Both the position numbers and the translations under genes were made by a program. The notes below the pieces were generated by a model. The model ran no database searches. It was given only the letters and a program-made list of their open reading frames with translations, and was not told the origin of the DNA. 10,141 nt of DNA, taken from IMG/VR virus record IMGVR_UViG_2693429748_000016; one strand, given 5' to 3'. The stretch comes from a virus (lineage: Duplodnaviria; Heunggongvirae; Uroviricota; Caudoviricetes). Shown one piece after another: positions 1 to 10,141 of this stretch; positions within the stretch are counted from its first letter, which is position 1, and the number at the start of each line of letters is the position of its first letter.

Positions 1-1
1 A

Positions 2-220
2 AGTCATCGGGCATTATCTGAACATAAAACACTACCAATAAGTTGGAGTCATTACCAAACGGTTGAAATGTATGCCGCTACTTACGGGTCCTGTAATCCT
101 CTGAATAAACCAGAGGGAAAAGATGATTTCGACAAAATTTACCGCTTCTTGGAGGACCGCTATATCAAAAGCTTAGAGGACGCAGGGATCAAATCCCCAG
201 TGAAGTCACCATTGTCCTGA
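2..220 (+). CDS. 3' end of an unidentified protein-coding gene (partial, continues beyond window start)
   Basis: Frame 2 is open from position 2 to TGA at 218-220 (72 codons without a stop). All three minus-strand frames across 1-188 contain stops. No motif recognised. Overlaps the 3' end of the convergent minus-strand gene by about 30 bp. Confidence 0.3.
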   Translation, partial: SHRALSEHKTLPISWSHYQTVEMYAATYGSCNPLNKPEGKDDFDKIYRFLEDRYIKSLEDAGIKSPVKSPLS

Positions 221-565: not shown

Positions 566-772
566 TCAGTCAGTGTTTCTGGCTAACCAGCAACGCGCGC
601 CAGATTCGGTTTTAAACGTTTTGCTTTTGGTATACGTCATGGCGGTAAACGTTCCATCCTGGTTAGGGAACACGCCGCACACCAGAGATTCGTTGTTGCC
701 AAGATCGATAGTATCCATGCTGACCTCATTTCCCCTTAACGCCGGGGTGGCGGAACAAAAAACCTGCTGCAT
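566..772 (-). CDS. hypothetical small protein (68 aa)
   Basis: ORF track 566..772 (-). Stop overlaps the downstream start candidate (ATGA arrangement), consistent with a leftward operon leaving the immunity region. Weak RBS. An overlapping plus-strand ORF (573..785) is the alternative reading. Confidence 0.35.
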   Translation of the reverse strand: MQQVFCSATPALRGNEVSMDTIDLGNNESLVCGVFPNQDGTFTAMTYTKSKTFKTESGARCWLARNTD

Positions 773-899
773 AGTTAAAGATTGAACCCTGCCGTCATGT
801 TCTTACGCCTCGGGCTGGCTACTTAACCCCTGACCACTGTCTGGTAACTCGAAGTATTGCCCTGCATTCTGTGGGGCGGGGTGGGTTGACGCCTGAAAC

Positions 900-941
900 A
901 ATAGCATCATTATTTTTTTTGATGTAAATAGCATCGCTATT
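900..941. promoter_or_regulatory. pair of operator-like palindromes (OL-like) downstream of the repressor/TA operon
   Basis: ATAGCATCATTAT at 901-913 and the perfect-armed palindrome AATAGC-ATC-GCTATT at 927-941 (arms ATAGC/GCTAT, 3-bp spacer). Centres are about 27 bp apart. The same 13-bp motif family recurs at 2039-2076. Confidence 0.4.
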
Positions 942-956
942 GTTTTTTGTTGGGGC

Positions 957-981
957 AAGAAAAAACCACCCTAAGGTGGTT
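957..981 (-). terminator. intrinsic terminator for the leftward repressor-antitoxin-toxin operon
   Basis: 7-bp stem AACCACC/GGTGGTT (964-970 and 975-981) with loop CTAA. On the minus-strand transcript the hairpin is followed by UUUUUCUUG (complement of the A-run at 957-963). Lies 17 bp beyond the parE stop at 998. Confidence 0.45.
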
Positions 982-997
982 CTGTCGGCGGGAATAA

Positions 998-1288
998 TTA
1001 ACTGTTTTTGCCTGGATACTGTCTTCGAGAATGCACAATATTTACTACTTCTATGCTTGATGCTGTTACTCGGTAAAGGATGATGTAGTTAGGATGAGTT
1101 ACAATTTCACGAAGACCAAGAACTCGCTCGCTTGGAGGATACAGGTAAGGATGCTCTGTGAGCGGCAAAACGGATGTTTCAATTCGAATTTTCATTCTGC
1201 GTGCTGCCGCGGGATTTTCTTTAGCTATGTAGGCTACGATCTGGCGCAAATCATCACGAGCAGATGGTAGCCATAAAACGGGTAACAT
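998..1288 (-). CDS. parE: ParE-family type II toxin (RelE/ParE superfamily), 96 aa
   Basis: Size and sequence are typical of ParE toxins (N-terminal MLPVLWLPSARDDL, C-terminal PNYIILYRV...VVNIVHSRRQYP). Start overlaps the stop of the upstream antitoxin gene (ATGA at 1288). From memory it resembles ParE2 of the E. coli paaR2-paaA2-parE2 module; not verified by alignment. Confidence 0.85.
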   Translation of the reverse strand: MLPVLWLPSARDDLRQIVAYIAKENPAAARRMKIRIETSVLPLTEHPYLYPPSERVLGLREIVTHPNYIILYRVTASSIEVVNIVHSRRQYPGKNS

Positions 1289-1482
1289 TATTCACCTCTG
1301 TGAGTTGCAGCAGCAATTTGGGCAATAATTTGTTCCATTTCCGCCATTACCTCATCATGCGGAATCGCCGGGCGGGGATCCGCGAGGCTTGCTGCTACTT
1401 TGGCCCGCAGCCATTCGTTGTAACTATTTTCTTGCTCAACTGTCTCAAATTCTGAAACCATTGGGGAAAGGACTGTACTCAT
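1288..1482 (-). CDS. paaA: small antitoxin, PaaA-like (64 aa), partner of ParE
   Basis: 64-aa acidic protein immediately upstream of and overlapping parE. GGAG lies 10 nt upstream of the ATG at 1482. Motif SPMVSEFETVEQENSYNEWLRAKVAASLADPRPAIPHDEV matches my recollection of PaaA2-type antitoxins. Gene context (regulator-antitoxin-ParE) supports the call. Confidence 0.75.
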   Translation of the reverse strand: MSTVLSPMVSEFETVEQENSYNEWLRAKVAASLADPRPAIPHDEVMAEMEQIIAQIAAATHRGE

Positions 1483-1501
1483 TTTACATATCTCCTCTGA
1501 T

Positions 1502-2002
1502 TTAGGCGCGACGGCCTTTTTGTGCAGCTAACCACCGCGCAACCGTACGATCCATTGATTCTTTTTTATCTTTCATCTCCTGAAGCATGTGTTCTTGATC
1601 TTCTTTCGGAAAAGCTCTGAACGTATGGATTAAATCTCGTTCCATCGGCTCTACGGCAAACGGTAGTTCATCCTCTGTTTGTTCTGTGTCTGCTGGTAAT
1701 GCGACTATGTTATCTTGCTGTGGTTCTCGACAATACATCCTTGCAATTTGCAGCAAATCTACCATGTCTGGCCTGATTGACTCAGGGGGAACTTTCAGTA
1801 AGCCAGCAAACTTTAGAACAGCCTCAAGGTTTAGTGGGGTTTGACCATTTAGGTAGTGACTTACCGCCCCTTGTGTTGAAAACCCCATAATTTCCGCCGC
1901 ACGTTCCTGAGTCAATCCCAACTGAGATTTCTTTGCCATCCAGATTTCTTTCAGTCTTCTGGCGGCGTTGAGGTCGGTGTCTGACAATGATTTTCTTTTC
2001 AT
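1502..2002 (-). CDS. CI-like HTH (XRE-family) repressor, PaaR-like; likely prophage immunity repressor
   Basis: ORF track 1502..2032 begins at a GTG; the first ATG (MKRKSLSDTDL..., at 2002) is the more plausible start. N-terminal HTH segment LTQERAAEIMGFSTQGAVSHYLNG. Transcribed divergently from the Cro-like gene across an operator-bearing intergenic region. First gene of the repressor-paaA-parE operon. No Ser/Lys S24 peptidase motif recognised in the C-terminal half. Confidence 0.75.
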   Translation of the reverse strand: MKRKSLSDTDLNAARRLKEIWMAKKSQLGLTQERAAEIMGFSTQGAVSHYLNGQTPLNLEAVLKFAGLLKVPPESIRPDMVDLLQIARMYCREPQQDNIVALPADTEQTEDELPFAVEPMERDLIHTFRAFPKEDQEHMLQEMKDKKESMDRTVARWLAAQKGRRA

Positions 2003-2037
2003 ACATCCAATTCTAATAAGATTGCTAATCACTTTGA

Positions 2038-2079
2038 AATAGCATCACTATTTACTTTTAAAAATAACAGTGCTATTAA
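2038..2079. promoter_or_regulatory. OR-like operator pair overlapping a candidate rightward early promoter
   Basis: AATAGCATCACTATT at 2038-2052 and ATAACAGTGCTAT at 2064-2076, same motif family as 901-941, centres about 25 bp apart. Candidate promoter TTTACT (2051-2056), 17-nt spacer, TATTAA (2074-2079), which would start transcription just upstream of the Cro-like gene. Confidence 0.45.
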
Positions 2080-2113
2080 TTATGCATTGGTAACACATCA
2101 CATAGGGCGGATT

Positions 2114-2377
2114 ATGAATCTTGGAGAATATTTGCATCATTTTCATATAACCCAGAGTTCATTTGCTGAGATTGTTGGCGCATCCCAAGGGATGGTCAGC
2201 CACGTTATAACGGGGCGTGCAAAACTTACAGGAGAAAAAATATTACGTTGGTGTGAAGCAACGGGATGGGTGGTGACCCCACATGAGATTGACAGTAAAA
2301 CCTACCCCAACCCAACTGACGGCTTGCCTGCTGAGTTTCAGGCTAACACACAACCATCGGCGGGGGTTGATTCATGA
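2114..2377 (+). CDS. Cro/YdaS-like HTH DNA-binding protein (87 aa from ATG 2114; 96 aa if started at 2087)
   Basis: HTH-like segment QSSFAEIVGASQGMVSHVITGRAKLTGEKILRW. First gene of the rightward operon, divergent from the repressor. Stop overlaps the next gene's start (ATGA at 2374-2377). Start choice between 2087 and 2114 is unresolved. Confidence 0.65.
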   Translation: MNLGEYLHHFHITQSSFAEIVGASQGMVSHVITGRAKLTGEKILRWCEATGWVVTPHEIDSKTYPNPTDGLPAEFQANTQPSAGVDS

Positions 2378-2799
2378 AAATCAAGCATGAACACATCCGC
2401 ATGGCGATGAAAGCCTGGGCGCATCCGGACGGTGAAAAAGTTCCGGCAGCTGAAATAACCAGGGTTTATTTCGAACTGGGAATGACGTTTCCGGTTCTGC
2501 ATAACGACAGCAAGCACAACACGCTTTATCTCAACACCCAAAAGATTTTCCGTTGGCTGGATAAAGACACCCCTGACGCTGTTGAAAAAATTCAGGCGTT
2601 GTTACCTGCGATCGAAAGGGCAATGCCACCTCCGCTGGTGGCTCGAATGCGCAGCCACAGTTCAGCTTATTTTCGGGAACTGGTGGAGACGCATGAACGA
2701 CTGGTGAGAGACGCTGATGATTTTGTCGCAGTGGCAATCGCCGGTTTCAATCAGATGAACCGTGGTGGCCCGGCAGGAAATGCTGTGGCAGTACATTGA
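2374..2799 (+). CDS. YdaT-like protein (141 aa), second gene of the rightward early operon
   Basis: Begins MKIKHEHIRMAMKAW. Position and size match the second gene of Rac-type ydaS-ydaT pairs. Family assignment is from gene order and recollection, not alignment. Confidence 0.6.
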   Translation: MKIKHEHIRMAMKAWAHPDGEKVPAAEITRVYFELGMTFPVLHNDSKHNTLYLNTQKIFRWLDKDTPDAVEKIQALLPAIERAMPPPLVARMRSHSSAYFRELVETHERLVRDADDFVAVAIAGFNQMNRGGPAGNAVAVH

Positions 2800-2870: not shown

Positions 2871-3935
2871 ATGGCTAACGCCTGGCTCAGATTATGGCAT
2901 GACATGCCAAATGACCCTAAGTGGCGAACAATTGCCAGGGTGTCAGGGCAGCCAATTGCAACAGTGATGGCAGTGTATATCCACCTCCTGGTGAGCGCGT
3001 CACGAAATGTCACGCGAGGTCACATTGATGTCACGACAGAAGATTTGGCAAGTGCGCTCGACGTGACAGAAGAGGTAATTGATTCAATTTTGCAGACGAT
3101 GCAGGGGCGGGTACTTGATGGTGATTTAATCACTGGATGGGAAAAACGCCAGGTGCTTAAAGAGGACAACGGCAATATTTCGCAAACCGCAAAATCTCCT
3201 GCAGAGCGCAAGAGGGCGCAGCGAGAGAGGGAAAGAAAGCGGGAACAAAATGGCGATTGTCACGGCGCGTCACGAAATGTCACGCACATGTCACGACGAG
3301 TCACGACAGATACAGATAAAGATACAGATAAAGAAGATCAAAACACTATGGTCCATGGCGTAAAAAACGCCACGAACCAGGCAGGGGATGTTCAGACCGT
3401 CAATCCTGGTCAGCCAGCAGGCTCGACACCGGAAGCCGATTCAGCGTATGCGCTGAAAGCCGATTCGGGCGCTGTGCAGCAGGTGATGACCGCAAGGCCG
3501 GAGCAATCACTCCAACTGCAGCAGCCTGAAGCCGATTCCGCCATTCAGCGGGAAGCCGATCGGGTAGCCCCGGAAAACACCGGGCAGCCTGTGGGACGAG
3601 TGGATTATCCGGATGTGTTCGAACAGGTCTGGCGGGAATACCCGTTGCGTGCCGGGGCAAACCCGAAGAAATCCGCATTCAGTGCCTGGAAGGCCAGATT
3701 GCGCGAGGGGGTGCCACCAGAGACCATGCTGGATGGTGTGAGGCGTTACGCGAGATACCTGGCGGCGACCGGGAAAGCGGGAACGGAATTTGTTCAGCGA
3801 GCGACGACGTTTTTTGGGCCGGACCGGAATTTTGAAAACCCCTGGTTGCTCCCGGTAAGCGGCACGAACAACCAGCGTTGTGTGAATCATATTTCTGAAC
3901 CGGATACCGAAATTCCGCCGGGATTCAGGGGGTGA
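2871..3935 (+). CDS. phage replication initiator / replisome organiser (O-like, YdaU-like), about 354 aa
   Basis: ATG at 2871 with GAGG 5 nt upstream (ORF track begins at GTG 2865). C-terminal region (YPDVFEQVWREYPLRAGANPKKSAFSAWKARL...FENPW) resembles the conserved C-terminal domain of phage replication proteins. Lies immediately upstream of a DnaC-like loader. Carries internal iteron arrays. Confidence 0.85.
   Translation: MANAWLRLWHDMPNDPKWRTIARVSGQPIATVMAVYIHLLVSASRNVTRGHIDVTTEDLASALDVTEEVIDSILQTMQGRVLDGDLITGWEKRQVLKEDNGNISQTAKSPAERKRAQRERERKREQNGDCHGASRNVTHMSRRVTTDTDKDTDKEDQNTMVHGVKNATNQAGDVQTVNPGQPAGSTPEADSAYALKADSGAVQQVMTARPEQSLQLQQPEADSAIQREADRVAPENTGQPVGRVDYPDVFEQVWREYPLRAGANPKKSAFSAWKARLREGVPPETMLDGVRRYARYLAATGKAGTEFVQRATTFFGPDRNFENPWLLPVSGTNNQRCVNHISEPDTEIPPGFRG
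2995..3040. repeat. iteron block 1 (putative origin element) inside the replication gene
   Basis: TCACG copies at 3000, 3010 and 3031 (roughly 10-11 bp phasing). The 21-mer GCGCGTCACGAAATGTCACGC (2995-3015) recurs exactly at 3265-3285. Confidence 0.55.
3259..3334. repeat. iteron block 2 plus tandem 12-mer (putative origin core) inside the replication gene
   Basis: TCACG copies at 3260, 3270, 3280, 3291 and 3301 (spacing 10, 10, 11, 10 bp), followed by TACAGATAAAGA x2 (3311-3334) and an A-rich stretch. Resembles the lambda arrangement of an origin embedded in the O gene. Confidence 0.55.
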
Positions 3936-3941
3936 TGTGGC

Positions 3942-4688
3942 ATGAAAAACATTGCGGCAGCCGGGGTTCTTGAACGTATTCACAGACTTGCACCACAGGG
4001 GGCGGTTCCACCGTACCGGACGGTGGAGGAGTGGCGGGAATGGCAACTTGCTGAAGGACGAAAACGCAGCGAGGAGATTAACCGCCAGAATCGCCAGTTG
4101 CGGGTGGAAAAAATCCTGAATCGTTCGGGCATCCAGCCTCTGCACAGCAAATGCTCGTTTGCGAATTATCAGGTGCAGAACGACGGGCAAAAATACGCGC
4201 TGAGCCAGGCCAAATCCATAGCTGACGAACTGATGACCGGGTGCACGAATTTTGTGTTCAGCGGTAAAACCGGCACCGGGAAAAATCACCTTGCAGCGGC
4301 GATGGGTAACCGGCTGATGGCGAAGGGGCGCAGCGTGATTATCGTCACCGAGTCTGATGTCATGAGCGTGTTGCATGACAGCTACGACAACGGCAAATCC
4401 GGTGAAAAATTTTTACAGGAGCTTTGCGGGGTTGATTTGCTGGTCCTGGATGAAATAGGCATTCAGCGGGAGACGAAAAACGAGCAGGTGGTATTGCACC
4501 AGATAATTGATCGCCGGACAGCATCACTGTGCAGTGTCGGGATGTTAACAAACCTGAATCATGCCGCAATGAGCACGCTTCTTGGTGAGAGGATTATGGA
4601 CCGCATGACCATGAACGGTTGTCGGTGGGTGACGTTTAACTGGGATAGCTGGCGTTCAAATGTCAGCTTTCCGGGAGTTGTGAAGTAA
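3942..4688 (+). CDS. DnaC-like replicative helicase loader (AAA+ ATPase), 248 aa
   Basis: Walker A GKTGTGKNHLAAAMG, Walker B LLVLDEIG, and C-terminal LLGERIMDRM...WVTFNWDSWR closely paralleling E. coli DnaC. Starts 7 nt after the replication gene stop. Confidence 0.92.
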   Translation: MKNIAAAGVLERIHRLAPQGAVPPYRTVEEWREWQLAEGRKRSEEINRQNRQLRVEKILNRSGIQPLHSKCSFANYQVQNDGQKYALSQAKSIADELMTGCTNFVFSGKTGTGKNHLAAAMGNRLMAKGRSVIIVTESDVMSVLHDSYDNGKSGEKFLQELCGVDLLVLDEIGIQRETKNEQVVLHQIIDRRTASLCSVGMLTNLNHAAMSTLLGERIMDRMTMNGCRWVTFNWDSWRSNVSFPGVVK

Positions 4689-5450: not shown

Positions 5451-5816
5451 ATGGCAAAAGTATTTACACAGGAAGAGCGGGAAAAAATTAAGGGGCAGGT
5501 TGTTGAACTCGTACGCCAGAGTGGGCGCGAGACGTTACGACAACTGGAAGCTAAAACCGGGGCGACAAGATATTTAATAAGCGTTCTCGCCAGAGAGCTG
5601 GTTGCCAGTGGGGATGTATACAACTCTGGCTACGGGTTATTCCCGTCTGAACAGGCTCGTAAGGACTGGCAAAACGCCCGCAAAAAACTCTCGAGGGCAA
5701 AGCTGAAGAAACCATCTGTGGTTGATCCGGACCTTATCTGGTCATTACCAGACGGAGAAATACGCCGCTACGAAGTACCGGCTTTCTATCAGGGTGATTT
5801 TCAGGAACCGTTCTGA
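5451..5816 (+). CDS. hypothetical phage protein (about 121 aa); 3' end fused to an IS-derived segment
   Basis: ATG at 5451 (ORF track begins at TTG 5436). A diverged second copy of most of this gene lies at 5930-6319. The last codons (..QEPF stop) fall within the sequence attributed to the IS remnant. Confidence 0.55.
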   Translation: MAKVFTQEEREKIKGQVVELVRQSGRETLRQLEAKTGATRYLISVLARELVASGDVYNSGYGLFPSEQARKDWQNARKKLSRAKLKKPSVVDPDLIWSLPDGEIRRYEVPAFYQGDFQEPF

Positions 5817-5929
5817 CAGCTTCGGCTTTGAACTCTTTAGAGTAACGTTGGGTTTTTCTGCTCATTATTAGCTCCTTCTGATGCCATTCTATTTCAGGAA
5901 GGAGTGTCCGTTAAACTCAGGCTACCTCA
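5806..5929 (-). mobile_element. remnant of an IS3-family insertion sequence (left end plus first ~20 codons of orfA), IS600-like
   Basis: The minus strand reads TGAGGTAGCC... from 5929 (typical IS3-family terminus), then AAGGAGCTAATA-ATG and MSRKTQRYSKEFKAEAVRTV (ATG at 5865). I recall this as the IS600-type OrfA N-terminus; unverified. The element breaks off after about 20 codons. Confidence 0.5.
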
Positions 5930-6319
5930 AAAATTAAAGGGCAGGTTGTTGAACTTGTACGTCTGAGCGGTCGCGAGACGTTGCGGCAACTGGAAGCCAA
6001 GACAGGTGCGACAAGATATCTGATGAGTGTTCTCGCCAGAGAGCTGGTTGCCAGTGGCGATGTATACAACTCTGGTTACGGGTTATTCCCGTCTGAACAG
6101 GCGCGTAAGGACTGGCAAAACGCCCGCAAAAAACTCTCAAGGGCAAATCTGAAGAAACCATCTGTGGTTGATCCTGACCTTATCTGGTCATTACCAGACG
6201 GAGAAATACGCCGCTACGACAGGCGTCAAAACATAATCTGTAGCGAGTGCCGGAAGAGTGAAGTTATGCAGCGTGTACCGGCTTTCTATCAGGGTGATTT
6301 TCAGGAGGCGGTACTGTGA
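5930..6319 (+). pseudogene. N-terminally truncated, diverged second copy of the 5451..5816 gene
   Basis: 5930-6230 aligns with 5483-5790 at roughly 93% identity by eye. Homology begins exactly at the IS terminus, so the copy lacks about the first 10 codons and its start. ORF track 5981..6319 starts at an internal ATG. Carries an extra 56-bp segment near the 3' end relative to copy A. Confidence 0.5.
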
Positions 6320-6440
6320 GTGAAATTAGCTATCAAATAATCTGTCGCGAGTGCCGGAAGAGCGAAGCTATGCAGCGTGTACTGGCTTTCTATCAGGGTA
6401 ATTTTCAGGAGGCGATACTGTGAATGAAATTAGCTATCAG
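6233..6440. repeat. 104-bp tandem direct repeat (2 units, about 92% identical)
   Basis: Unit 1 is 6233-6336 and unit 2 is 6337-6440, with 8 mismatches out of 104. Each unit contains the gene 3' end (..CxECRKSExMQRVxAFYQGxFQEAxL), a TGA stop, and an abutting start codon (GTG in unit 1, ATG in unit 2). Confidence 0.75.
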
Positions 6441-10003: not shown

Positions 10004-10138
10004 TTACGGTGCACTGGATAAAAAATCGGTTTCATAGATTTGCCCACCGTGGTATACGCCTGCGATAAAAACTTTATTGTCATCAACGGCAAAAGCAATA
10101 ATTGTTCTGTGGCGGGGTGATGCTGCCAACTTACTGAT
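10004..10138 (-). pseudogene. possible remnant of a RelE/ParE-like toxin gene (C-terminal fragment only)
   Basis: Minus-strand frame reads ..RTIIAFAVDDNKVFIAGVYHGGQIYE.. ending at TAA (10004-10006), a pattern reminiscent of RelE/ParE C-termini. The frame is closed by an in-frame TAA at 10139-10141 and has no ATG, so it is either a fragment, a frameshifted gene, or chance. Confidence 0.2.
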
Positions 10139-10141
10139 TTA

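Follow-up and report, generated by a model that had tools for sequence, protein, structure and literature searches.

Described three-component systems

The paaR2-paaA2-parE2 operon is carried by the cryptic prophage CP-933P/Sp12 of Escherichia coli O157:H7 and also by Escherichia phage Evi. The counterparts of CI, Cro and CII in CP-933P are PaaR2, YdaS and YdaT, respectively; this locus also has a PL/OL region, and its expression is bistable (PMC8630535). PaaR2 down-regulates its own operon, and leaderless translation was shown for paaR2, as is known for lambda cI (PMC8630535). The YdaT operator, TTGATTN6AATCAA, was defined by footprinting at the ydaS/ydaT junction (PMC9986795). The paaA2-parE2 genes are transcribed in both states of the switch, and no activity of ParE2 was seen in either of them (Jurenas 2021; PMC8630535). 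PaaA2 neutralises its cognate ParE only and is degraded by ClpXP and ClpAP (PMC8630535); ParE2 is toxic, yet reportedly neither binds GyrA59 nor inhibits gyrase (PMC10886550). The locus stabilises a mini-F plasmid, and post-segregational killing and plasmid stabilisation are its only demonstrated phenotypes (PMC8630535). That a lambda-like immunity switch can contain a toxin-antitoxin pair and control it is therefore already in the literature, and the coupling of immunity control to addiction has been published for this operon (Hallez 2010; Jurenas 2021, PMC8630535). A second operon, paaR1-paaA1-parE1, lies in CP-933M/Sp4 of the same serotype (Sakai ECs_1069, ECs_1068 and ECs_1067).

Gene content of the locus

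The window, i.e. the whole 10,141-bp stretch analyzed, is a prophage remnant of Shigella sonnei. Its leftward part (Table 1) was interpreted, with a probability of about 0.8, as an immunity switch from a lambdoid prophage resembling Rac/Qin, with PaaA-ParE as cargo in the repressor operon. As in paaR2-paaA2-parE2, the immunity region contains a leftward operon of three genes that faces ydaS-ydaT; all three open reading frames of the original prediction (998-1288, 1288-1482 and 1502-2002) were present on the minus strand. That prediction had described overlapping stop and start codons, which holds for paaA/parE, where one base is shared (TAATG at 1288), and not for paaR/paaA, which are 19 nt apart. 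As in the three-component arrangement (Hallez 2010), a co-oriented HTH regulator gene is upstream of paaA; the 19-nt gap contains GGAG and no terminator.

Table 1. Features of the immunity region and of the window boundaries (operators are predicted, promoters are inferred)
Feature	Positions	Strand	Evidence or description
IS1 copy end, presumed; left boundary of remnant	1..56		98% match to other IS1 copies in S. sonnei loci
ydfA-like DUF1391 gene	566..772	-	Pfam DUF1391 3.3e-28; first gene of presumed PL operon
G-rich 21-mer TCTGTGGGGCGGGGTGGGTTG	868..888		Flanks OL; nearly invariant over three immunity types
PL-like promoter	898..928	-	-35 TTTACA 928..923, 19-nt spacer, -10 TATTGT 903..898
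OL1 AATAGCATCATTATT	900..914		1 mismatch to AATAG-N5-CTATT; overlaps PL -10
OL2 AATAGCATCGCTATT	927..941		0 mismatches; overlaps PL -35
Terminator-like hairpin and U-run	957..983	-	9-bp stem, -15.1 kcal/mol, z = -2.7; 3' of parE, before OL
parE, ParE1-type toxin gene, 96 aa	998..1288	-	Pfam PF05016, PDB ParE2, dN/dS
paaA, antitoxin gene, 64 aa	1288..1482	-	Pfam PF21217, PDB PaaA2
paaR, immunity repressor, 166 aa	1502..2002	-	HTH_3, lambda CI N-terminal match, PaaR2 C-terminal match
Repressor domains (residues)			Lambda-CI-type N-terminal 1-91; disordered linker 94-112; PaaR-type helical C-terminal 119-165
PRM-like promoter	2010..2038	-	-35 TTCAAA 2038..2033, 17-nt spacer, -10 TAGAAT 2015..2010
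OR3 (weak) AATAAGATTGCTAAT	2015..2029		2 mismatches; within PRM
OR2 AATAGCATCACTATT	2038..2052		0 mismatches; overlaps PR -35
PR-like promoter	2051..2079	+	-35 TTTACT 2051-2056, 17-nt spacer, -10 TATTAA 2074-2079
OR1 AATAACAGTGCTATT	2063..2077		1 mismatch; overlaps PR -10
ydaS, Cro-like regulator, 87 aa	2114..2377	+	PHROG 35, HTH_3
YdaT operator OM TTGATTCATGAAAATCAA	2367..2384		Exact TTGATTN6AATCAA; ydaS/ydaT junction
ydaT, CII-like regulator, 141 aa	2374..2799	+	Pfam YdaT_toxin, PHROG 163
Second IS1 copy end, presumed; right boundary of remnant	10116..10141		GGTGATGCTGCCAACTTACTGATTTA

The parE product matched Pfam ParE_toxin over its full length (residues 4-91, 64.1 bits, cut-off 23, E = 1.8e-17) and the solved ParE2 structure 5cw7_B (PDB; E = 6.7e-37, 67% identity over 92 aa), so the proposed similarity of 998-1288 to ParE/RelE toxins is significant. 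The paaA product matched Pfam PaaA2 (81.9 bits, cut-off 27, E = 3e-23) and the PaaA2 structure 3zbe (PDB; E = 1.4e-23). By Pfam, PF21217 was the sole match in its 64 residues and no DNA-binding domain was found, a likeness to CP-933P. The closest toxin and antitoxin were those of paaR1-paaA1-parE1 (83% identity to ECs_1067 and 78% to ECs_1068), whereas ParE and PaaA were each only 67% identical to the CP-933P proteins. The O157 paaR1 comparison used Sakai Sp4 genes read directly; loci L003-L006, considered for this role, belong to other E. coli strains. Type 1 and type 2 pairs differed in the C-terminal third of PaaA and in ParE residues 8-40, a sequence divergence consistent with pair specificity. 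Against diverged homologues, dN/dS was 0.05-0.09 for paaR, paaA and parE (0.05-0.06 for parE), which identifies them as constrained coding genes; as dS was saturated in several comparisons, this signal reflects long-term history and not necessarily function in S. sonnei.

In the right arm, YdaS matched PHROG 35 'transcriptional repressor' (8e-17) and scored just under the cut-off for Pfam HTH_3 (20.8 bits, E = 4e-4); a Cro-like gene does face the repressor operon, as had been proposed. YdaT matched Pfam YdaT_toxin (PF06254; 36.9 bits, cut-off 21, 5.1e-9) and PHROG 163 'CII-like transcriptional activator' (3e-40). Its identity to the YdaT proteins from Sp4 and phage Evi was 81-87% (87% for CP-933P/Evi), and the TTGATTN6AATCAA operator is identical, at the same junction. 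In the left arm, the position of the ydfA-like gene matches Sakai Sp4 and E. coli relatives. The YdaS/YdaT-type right arm and ydfA/dicB-type left arm also resemble those of Rac in E. coli K-12 (RacR-YdaS-YdaT); Rac is not known to carry a PaaA-ParE pair downstream of racR. Rfam and tRNA scans of the whole window returned nothing.

A chimeric repressor

The repressor matched Pfam HTH_3 (35.8 bits, cut-off 23), and its N-terminal domain matched that of lambda CI by phmmer (1lmb, E = 2.9e-9, alignment beginning at residue 2), with 39% identity to lambda CI residues 3-90. The predicted structure (pLDDT 83-94 across residues 11-90) was aligned with 1rio, 1lmb and 3kz3 using Foldseek (E about 1e-5, TM 0.81-0.93, 35-40% identity, rmsd 1.1-2.1 Å). 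The recognition-helix segment TQGAVSHY was invariant among 17 relatives. The HTH repressor originally called at 1502-2002 was thereby confirmed by sequence and by predicted fold.

The C-terminal domain, predicted as two helices, is homologous to that of PaaR2, an octameric protein; the last 44 residues were 52% identical (E = 5e-15) and were the only part that aligned with PaaR2. In contrast, the DNA-binding domain had no BLASTP match to that of PaaR2, PaaR1 is a 133-aa protein with a different XRE-type HTH, and overall identity to PaaR1/PaaR2 was 31-43% in global alignments. The repressor is a chimera of a lambda-CI-type N-terminal domain and a PaaR-type C-terminus. No S24/LexA-like peptidase domain was found by Pfam, a likeness to CP-933P and a difference from lambda CI, and RecA-mediated induction would therefore not be expected. 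Given this and the two-helix, PaaR2-like C-terminus, the protein is not a full CI-family member; its resemblance to CI lies in predicted DNA binding and in locus position. Scanning the C-terminal-domain alignment over species-representative genomes recovered only 4 loci, and exhaustive phmmer searches recovered 11 cluster representatives, including two (P0210 and P0212) that look like low-complexity artefacts; as judged by these searches, the domain has a narrow distribution.

The ATG at 2002 was preferred as the start for two reasons: its product can be aligned with lambda CI from residue 2 onwards, and the extension from a GTG at 2032 (176 aa) is out of frame, or its GTG not a start codon, in relatives L012 and L015. 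The extension only appears conserved because OR3 and the PRM -10 fall in that DNA. A truncated repressor in some S. sonnei (the 145-aa call in L007) was rejected as a gene-caller artefact; the DNA there differs by one base in OR2.

Predicted operators, promoters and terminator

Across the 10,141-bp window, no more than four sites (900, 927, 2038 and 2063) matched AATAG-N5-CTATT with at most one mismatch, against a mean of 0.25 and a maximum of 3 in 300 dinucleotide shuffles. A separate 15-mer count gave 3 matches against 0.31 expected, and none of 200 shuffles reached 3. Palindromes of one motif family on both sides of the operon, as first suspected, are thus real, if slightly wider than described (900-914, 927-941, 2038-2052 and 2063-2077). 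The predicted operators occupy the positions of OR and OL in lambda and overlap PR-, PRM- and PL-like hexamers. There are three OR sites, as in lambda, 23-25 bp apart (2015, 2038 and 2063), whereas only two OL sites were found. The centre of OR2 is about -43 from the presumed PRM start, as is also the case in lambda. CP-933P likewise has a PL, clustered operators at both OR and OL, and a leaderless-type start codon directly after the -10.

Among related loci, L001, L012, L015, L017 and L019 have operator pairs to either side of the repressor operon, and L024 has sites to either side. The paired OL sites were at the same position in L012, L015, L017 and L019, with a single site after the repressor gene in L024; the OR3 position was a conserved ATTAG-N5-CTATT in L015, L017, L019 and L024, and L012 carries OR2 as the reverse complement. 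AATAG-N5-CTATT flanked every related locus whose repressor shares this N-terminal domain, and was absent from the immunity regions of L002, L003 and L011, which are of the PaaR1/PaaR2 type, and from those of L021-L023. By these sequence comparisons, the motif tracks the repressor DNA-binding domain, and not the toxin-antitoxin cargo, across independent loci. In CP-933P the operators are instead GTTTAGTAA-type repeats, and identity in the YdaS HTH region is 30%. As the N-terminal domain, the operators and the YdaS HTH all differ from CP-933P, a different immunity specificity would be expected. Since the DNA-binding domain is unlike that of the tested PaaR2, we infer regulation from architecture only.

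The hexamers of PR, PL and PRM are modest (the -10s match 4/6), and a promoter scan was at chance overall (3 found, PRM among them, against 2.9 expected). Promoter-like sites at 886-913 (+) and 1915-1887 (-) occurred at chance frequency and were discarded. The PR layout is conserved among relatives, that of PL is alike in related loci, with TTGACA-like -35 hexamers, and that of PRM is kept, with 6-7 nt from the -10 to the ATG. With 7 nt between them here, the repressor mRNA is probably leaderless. A T-run in the PL spacer differs in length between strains, and with 19 nt in place of the 17 nt of an E. coli relative, PL may be weak in this strain. The terminator hairpin is kept in L012 with a different loop. 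The G-rich 21-mer is possibly a module-exchange boundary.

Mosaicism and the cargo slot

DNA homology to Sp4 spans ydfA, parE, paaA and the final ~42 paaR codons (575-1629), and resumes from the end of ydaS into ydaT. For PaaR1-type loci it covers 575-1629 and then continues from 2303 on, and for loci sharing the repressor N-terminal domain it covers about 1744-2399. Relative to Sp4, a 670-bp core (repressor N-terminal domain, OR and ydaS HTH) and a ~55-bp OL cassette are replaced; the HTH part of YdaS is swapped together with the repressor N-terminal domain, and the OL cassette is swapped between conserved flanks across three immunity types. Six related loci share the arrangement of a multipartite OR with a distal OL. 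In E. coli FDAARGOS_944 the same module, 99% identical, is inside a prophage that appears complete, and relatives of 243-255 aa have lambda-CI-type and XRE-type DNA-binding domains in tandem. A megablast search against phage genomes gave short flanking matches only; in phage Evi, tblastn found ParE2, where the gene is unannotated.

Gene order and orientation are those of lambda (OL/PL - rexB - rexA - cI - PRM/OR/PR - cro - cII), with cargo between the cI equivalent and OL followed by a terminator. The cargo here is PaaA-ParE and not RexAB; it lies where rexAB lies in lambda, as predicted. This position invites the reading that paaA-parE serves mainly to defend against phages, by abortive infection or exclusion (compare rexAB), rather than for addiction or stabilisation, and related slots do hold other pairs with PADLOC matches: in related immunity regions, a HigB-like toxin with an HTH protein (PD-Lambda-2 A/B, 1e-14), and in another relative, a HipA_2 and DUF3037 pair (PDC-M66 A/B, 1e-13 to 5e-19). 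However, ParE, PaaA and the repressor matched 0 families of the PADLOC-DB 2.0 models, and killing and stabilisation are all that the paralogue has demonstrated (PMC8630535); a primarily defensive role was considered unlikely. Defence and addiction roles are not mutually exclusive.

The remnant in Shigella sonnei

The window is bounded by sequences that we take to be an IS1 terminal sequence (1..56) and an IS1 inverted repeat (10116..10141), and in L007 an IS1 transposase gene adjoins the right boundary. No integrase, lysis or structural genes were found in the ~10-kb remnant, which has ParE-PaaA near one end and a PstI/BsuBI-type restriction-modification system at the other. 'Maintaining lysogeny', as originally proposed for the repressor, consequently fits intact relatives such as that in FDAARGOS_944 and not this host; in S. 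sonnei there is no viable phage left for the circuit to control. An open reading frame at 10004-10115 (-), considered as a RelE/ParE C-terminal fragment, had no Pfam or PDB support.

The module was intact in the S. sonnei assemblies sampled, and the exact ParE protein was found in >1000 contigs. It could be an inert relic, intact because the clone is young, with no current regulatory or addictive function. This would fit the stripped, IS1-bounded remnant and the variation between strains of one OR2 base and the PL spacer T-run, as relaxed constraint predicts, and the S. sonnei copies, at 99.8-99.9% identity, are uninformative on selection. Nevertheless, all five regulatory and toxin-antitoxin reading frames are intact, exact proteins recur in >1000 contigs, the block and the adjacent restriction-modification system survive despite heavy IS gene inactivation in S. 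sonnei, and the paralogous locus is addictive (PMC8630535). An inert module was judged somewhat less probable still than a mainly defensive one.

Proposed circuit

In the preferred reading of an immunity switch with PaaA-ParE cargo, repressor dimers would bind the 15-17-bp AATAG-N5-CTATT operators at three OR (2015, 2038 and 2063) and two OL (900 and 927) positions. OR1/OR2 would cover the -10/-35 of PR (ydaS, ydaT and replication genes) and OL1/OL2 those of PL (ydfA and beyond). OR2 would abut the PRM -35, as in lambda, with OR3 inside PRM, and these positions suggest that the repressor represses its own operon. From PRM, a probably leaderless paaR-paaA-parE transcript would end at the hairpin before OL. 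YdaS would be the Cro counterpart and YdaT that of CII, with its own exact operator at 2367-2384, and by analogy with CP-933P the switch would be bistable. PaaA, without a DNA-binding domain, would only sequester ParE; if the locus were lost, labile PaaA would decay and ParE would kill or arrest the cell, so that post-segregational killing may make the immunity region addictive.

That paaA-parE is instead an autonomous, conventionally autoregulated type II module served by a promoter of its own, outside the control of the upstream HTH protein, which would be only the phage repressor, is improbable: a promoter-like site inside paaR (TTGACT-17-AATTAT, 1915..1887, minus strand) and transcription of paaA2-parE2 in both switch states of CP-933P (PMC8630535) favor it, but that site is at chance frequency, PaaA (64 aa, with PF21217 as its sole Pfam match) has no DNA-binding domain, the 19-nt paaR-paaA gap has no terminator, and PaaR2 down-regulates the whole of its operon (PMC8630535).

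Significance

What is new here is a heteroimmune variant in which the DNA-binding domain of the repressor and the operators are different. Its comparative value lies in PaaA-ParE cargo and a PaaR C-terminus joined to a genuine lambda-CI DNA-binding domain whose operator set is clear. The locus provides a second, easily testable immunity specificity, and a natural domain swap for the role of the PaaR C-terminus (oligomerisation or looping). In related prophages this slot is filled by other pairs, of toxins or of defence candidates, and in S. sonnei the module is intact inside a minimal prophage remnant.

A joint proposal is offered tentatively, at well below even odds. The C-terminal domain of PaaR may act as a transferable unit for oligomerisation, carrying lambda-CI-type, XRE-type or tandem DNA-binding domains, and OR/OL cassettes may be exchanged alongside the DNA-binding domain to give new immunities, the C-terminus never being parted from its toxin-antitoxin cargo. 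Toxin or defence cargo may have a general hotspot in the slot that separates the repressor gene from OL. The 10-kb block left by IS1 erosion in S. sonnei may persist through two candidate addiction modules, ParE-PaaA and the restriction-modification system.

Repressor, antitoxin and toxin genes

Identities of the three products in the minus-strand operon were assessed with Pfam and PDB searches (see table). The original prediction of a ParE toxin, an antitoxin and an HTH repressor was borne out, with matches in both databases for ParE and PaaA and an HTH_3 match for the repressor; PaaA showed no domain besides PF21217 in the Pfam search. Overlapping stop and start codons, also predicted, were present at the paaA/parE junction (TAATG), but paaR and paaA are separated by 19 nt, containing GGAG. 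ParE was 83% identical to ECs_1067 and PaaA 78% identical to ECs_1068 (read directly from Sp4 of O157:H7 Sakai, the counterpart of CP-933M), and each was 67% identical to its counterpart ParE2 or PaaA2 (phage Evi genes, read directly). By these identities, the pair is of the ParE1/PaaA1 type. Estimates of dN/dS for parE, paaA and paaR against diverged homologues were 0.05-0.09, with dS near saturation.

Features of the immunity region and its flanks, with supporting evidence
Feature	Position	Strand	Evidence
IS1 end, left boundary	1-56		
PL-like promoter, TTTACA-19-TATTGT	-35 overlaps OL2, -10 overlaps OL1		Hexamers read from sequence
Terminator-like hairpin and U-run, 3' of parE	957-983		-15.1 kcal/mol, z = -2.7
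parE toxin	998-1288	minus	Pfam 64.1 bits (cut-off 23); PDB ParE2 E = 6.7e-37
paaA antitoxin	1288-1482	minus	PF21217 81.9 bits (cut-off 27); PDB PaaA2 E = 1.4e-23
HTH repressor (paaR)	1502-2002	minus	HTH_3 35.8 bits
PRM-like promoter, TTCAAA-17-TAGAAT	-35 2038..2033, -10 2015..2010	minus	Promoter scan
PR-like promoter, TTTACT-17-TATTAA	-35 overlaps OR2, -10 overlaps OR1		Hexamers read from sequence
YdaT operator, TTGATTN6AATCAA, ydaS/ydaT junction	2367-2384		Exact match to footprinted motif
N6-adenine methylase, 610 aa	7052-8884	plus	PADLOC MTase_II 1.8e-300
BsuBI/PstI-family endonuclease, 360 aa	8881-9963	plus	PADLOC REase_II 2.8e-128
IS1 end, right boundary	10116-10141		

The repressor is a chimera of a lambda-CI-type N-terminal domain and a PaaR C-terminus. 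Residues 2-81 aligned with lambda CI residues 3-81 (E = 2.9e-9), and the AlphaFold2 model (pLDDT 83-94 across residues 11-90) matched structures of the N-terminal domain of lambda CI (1rio, 1lmb and 3kz3; 37-40% identity, TM-score 0.81-0.93, rmsd 1.1-2.0 Å). Disorder was predicted for the linker (residues 94-112), and the C-terminal domain (residues 119-165) was modeled as two helices. The last 44 residues were 52% identical to the PaaR2 C-terminus (E = 5e-15), and no BLASTP match was obtained between the two N-terminal domains. No S24/LexA-like cleavage domain was identified in the repressor by Pfam search; by analogy with PaaR2, it should not be RecA-responsive.

This C-terminal domain has a narrow distribution: 1.84 billion cluster representatives, searched exhaustively, yielded 11 matches, and species-representative genomes yielded four loci when scanned. 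Relatives of the repressor had an XRE-type HTH only (PaaR1-like, 132-135 aa), the lambda-type domain only (154-166 aa), or both DNA-binding domains in tandem (240-255 aa). In the tandem relatives (P0077-P0082; Citrobacter braakii locus L024, 2895-3647), lambda-CI-type and PaaR1-type XRE domains are followed by the PaaR C-terminal domain, an arrangement from which the 166-aa and 132-aa forms seem to derive, each keeping a single DNA-binding domain. The recognition-helix stretch TQGAVSHY was invariant across 17 relatives.

Candidate operators, promoters and terminator

Operator-like palindromes of one motif family had been noted on both sides of the operon. Within one mismatch, AATAG-N5-CTATT occurred at exactly four sites in the window, 900 and 927 (OL1, OL2) and 2038 and 2063 (OR2, OR1), whereas 300 shuffled sequences averaged 0.25 sites and never exceeded 3; position 2015 has a fifth, poorer match (OR3). 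The motif was present in every compared locus with this N-terminal domain (L001 and L012, E. coli; L015, metagenome contig; L017, Salmonella diarizonae; L019, Logan run assembly; L024), in all six both directly 5' of the repressor gene and shortly past the operon end. No site was found in the immunity regions of PaaR1- or PaaR2-type loci (L003, Sakai Sp4, phage Evi, Klebsiella, Rahnella and Pectobacterium). Read as its reverse complement, OR2 of L012 is identical to the window OR2, as two-fold symmetric recognition predicts. The palindromes are most plausibly operators of the repressor's DNA-binding domain, the comparative evidence being the strongest argument. At position 2043, within OR2, L007 and L010 of S. 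sonnei differ from the window by a C/T polymorphism, the sole difference found in 800-2900.

A generic promoter scan of the window was at chance level overall. The PRM -10 lies 7 nt from the repressor ATG (6-7 nt in relatives), leaving no room for a leader, the same leaderless layout as lambda cI and paaR2 (5'-RACE-mapped). OR2 abuts the PRM -35, with its centre near -43, and OR3 lies inside PRM. The hairpin after parE was also kept in L012, and the YdaT operator occupies the same place in CP-933P (PMC9986795). A T-run between OL1 and OL2 (913-920) varied in length among strains, being T8 (window, L007, L010), T7 (L008), T9 (L009) or, in the intact prophage of E. coli (L001), T6, which gives PL spacers of 19, 18, 20 and 17 nt, respectively.

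Immunity exchange and relation to known systems

DNA homology to PaaR1-type loci covered 575-1629 (ydfA, parE, paaA and the repressor C-terminal domain) and restarted at 2303 (end of ydaS, all of ydaT), and homology to tandem-HTH loci covered ~1744-2399 (repressor N-terminal domain, OR and ydaS). The OL cassette (~55 bp) was exchanged too, between conserved flanks; within one flank, the 21-mer TCTGTGGGGCGGGGTGGGTTG (868-888) was nearly invariant across three immunity types, the adjoining ~55 bp being type-specific, and may mark a recombination boundary or act as an RNA element in the PL transcript. This mosaic is classic lambdoid immunity-module exchange, and one breakpoint lies between the repressor's two domains.

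Three-component paaR-paaA-parE systems were defined in O157:H7 by Hallez et al. (2010). In CP-933P, paaR2-paaA2-parE2 lies in the immunity region, with PaaR2 CI-like, YdaS Cro-like and YdaT CII-like; the locus has OR and OL/PL, paaR2 is leaderless, and the locus is bistable (Jurenas et al., 2021, PMC8630535). ParE2 was reported neither to bind GyrA59 nor to inhibit gyrase (PMC10886550). The deposited genome of phage Evi (L002, LR597642) carries paaR2-paaA2-parE2 at 3416-4276, with the parE2 ORF unannotated. Coupling of the immunity switch to toxin-antitoxin addiction, as originally proposed, was supported, with the CP-933P work of Jurenas et al. as precedent. A toxin-antitoxin pair in the immunity switch is thus already published, and the distinctive feature of this locus is the lambda-CI-type domain with its operators on a PaaR C-terminus. 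As the repressor differs from PaaR2 in its DNA-binding domain and operator set, the locus would be a heteroimmune member of the paaR-paaA-parE family.

For the pair itself, addiction or stabilization is, by homology, the best-supported role. The paaR2-paaA2-parE2 locus stabilized a mini-F plasmid to the same degree as ccdAB, and the pair was proposed to guard the immunity region against replacement through recombination (PMC8630535). An abortive-infection role for ParE-PaaA is conceivable, as cargo between the repressor gene and OL differs among related immunity regions (L015 3287-4860, L017 3112-3839, L019 3269-3457) and includes PADLOC candidates, HipA_2 with DUF3037 in one locus (PDC-M66 A/B) and a HigB-like toxin with an HTH protein in another (PD-Lambda-2 A/B); a third locus has no cargo. 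However, ParE, PaaA and the repressor had no PADLOC match.

The IS1-bounded remnant in Shigella sonnei

The window derives from a Shigella sonnei chromosome: four S. sonnei assemblies match it at 99.8-99.9% identity except for a 563-bp insertion (5774-6336), and the region's five proteins exactly matched S. sonnei proteins on >1000 contigs. The insertion holds a second, partial DUF977 gene copy (92-93% identical) and a 135-bp fragment (5795-5929) that corresponds to a stretch within an IS3-family (rve-domain) transposase gene of L008; the window DUF977 gene is broken into two ORFs (126 and 112 aa). In S. sonnei genomes the block is flanked by IS1 copies and then ordinary chromosomal genes: one neighbour is a mannitol-dehydrogenase gene, and some assemblies have genes of the DmsC and chloride-channel families at the opposite end. 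Because of the two IS1 ends and these flanking genes, the 'prophage' is a ~10-kb remnant, in which no integrase, lysis or structural genes were found. A RelE/ParE C-terminus resemblance of a short minus-strand ORF cut by IS1 (10004-10115, ...TIIAFAVDDNKVFIAGVYHGGQIYETDF...) was dropped, as it had no Pfam or PDB match.

In E. coli FDAARGOS_944, the immunity module (99% identical) lies within an apparently complete lambdoid prophage (integrase, dicB, ydfABC, immunity module, replication genes, Q, lysis genes). Of 5426 complete E. coli genomes, only 2 carried the module at ≥99% identity; 72 had a single match spanning at least 80% of the query, and those besides these two were ~80% identical among the matches listed. 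The remnant also carries an intact type II restriction-modification pair, with ORFs overlapping by 4 nt. In S. sonnei, the genes of the remnant are all that the circuit could control, and two modules in it are potentially addictive, ParE-PaaA and the restriction-modification pair.
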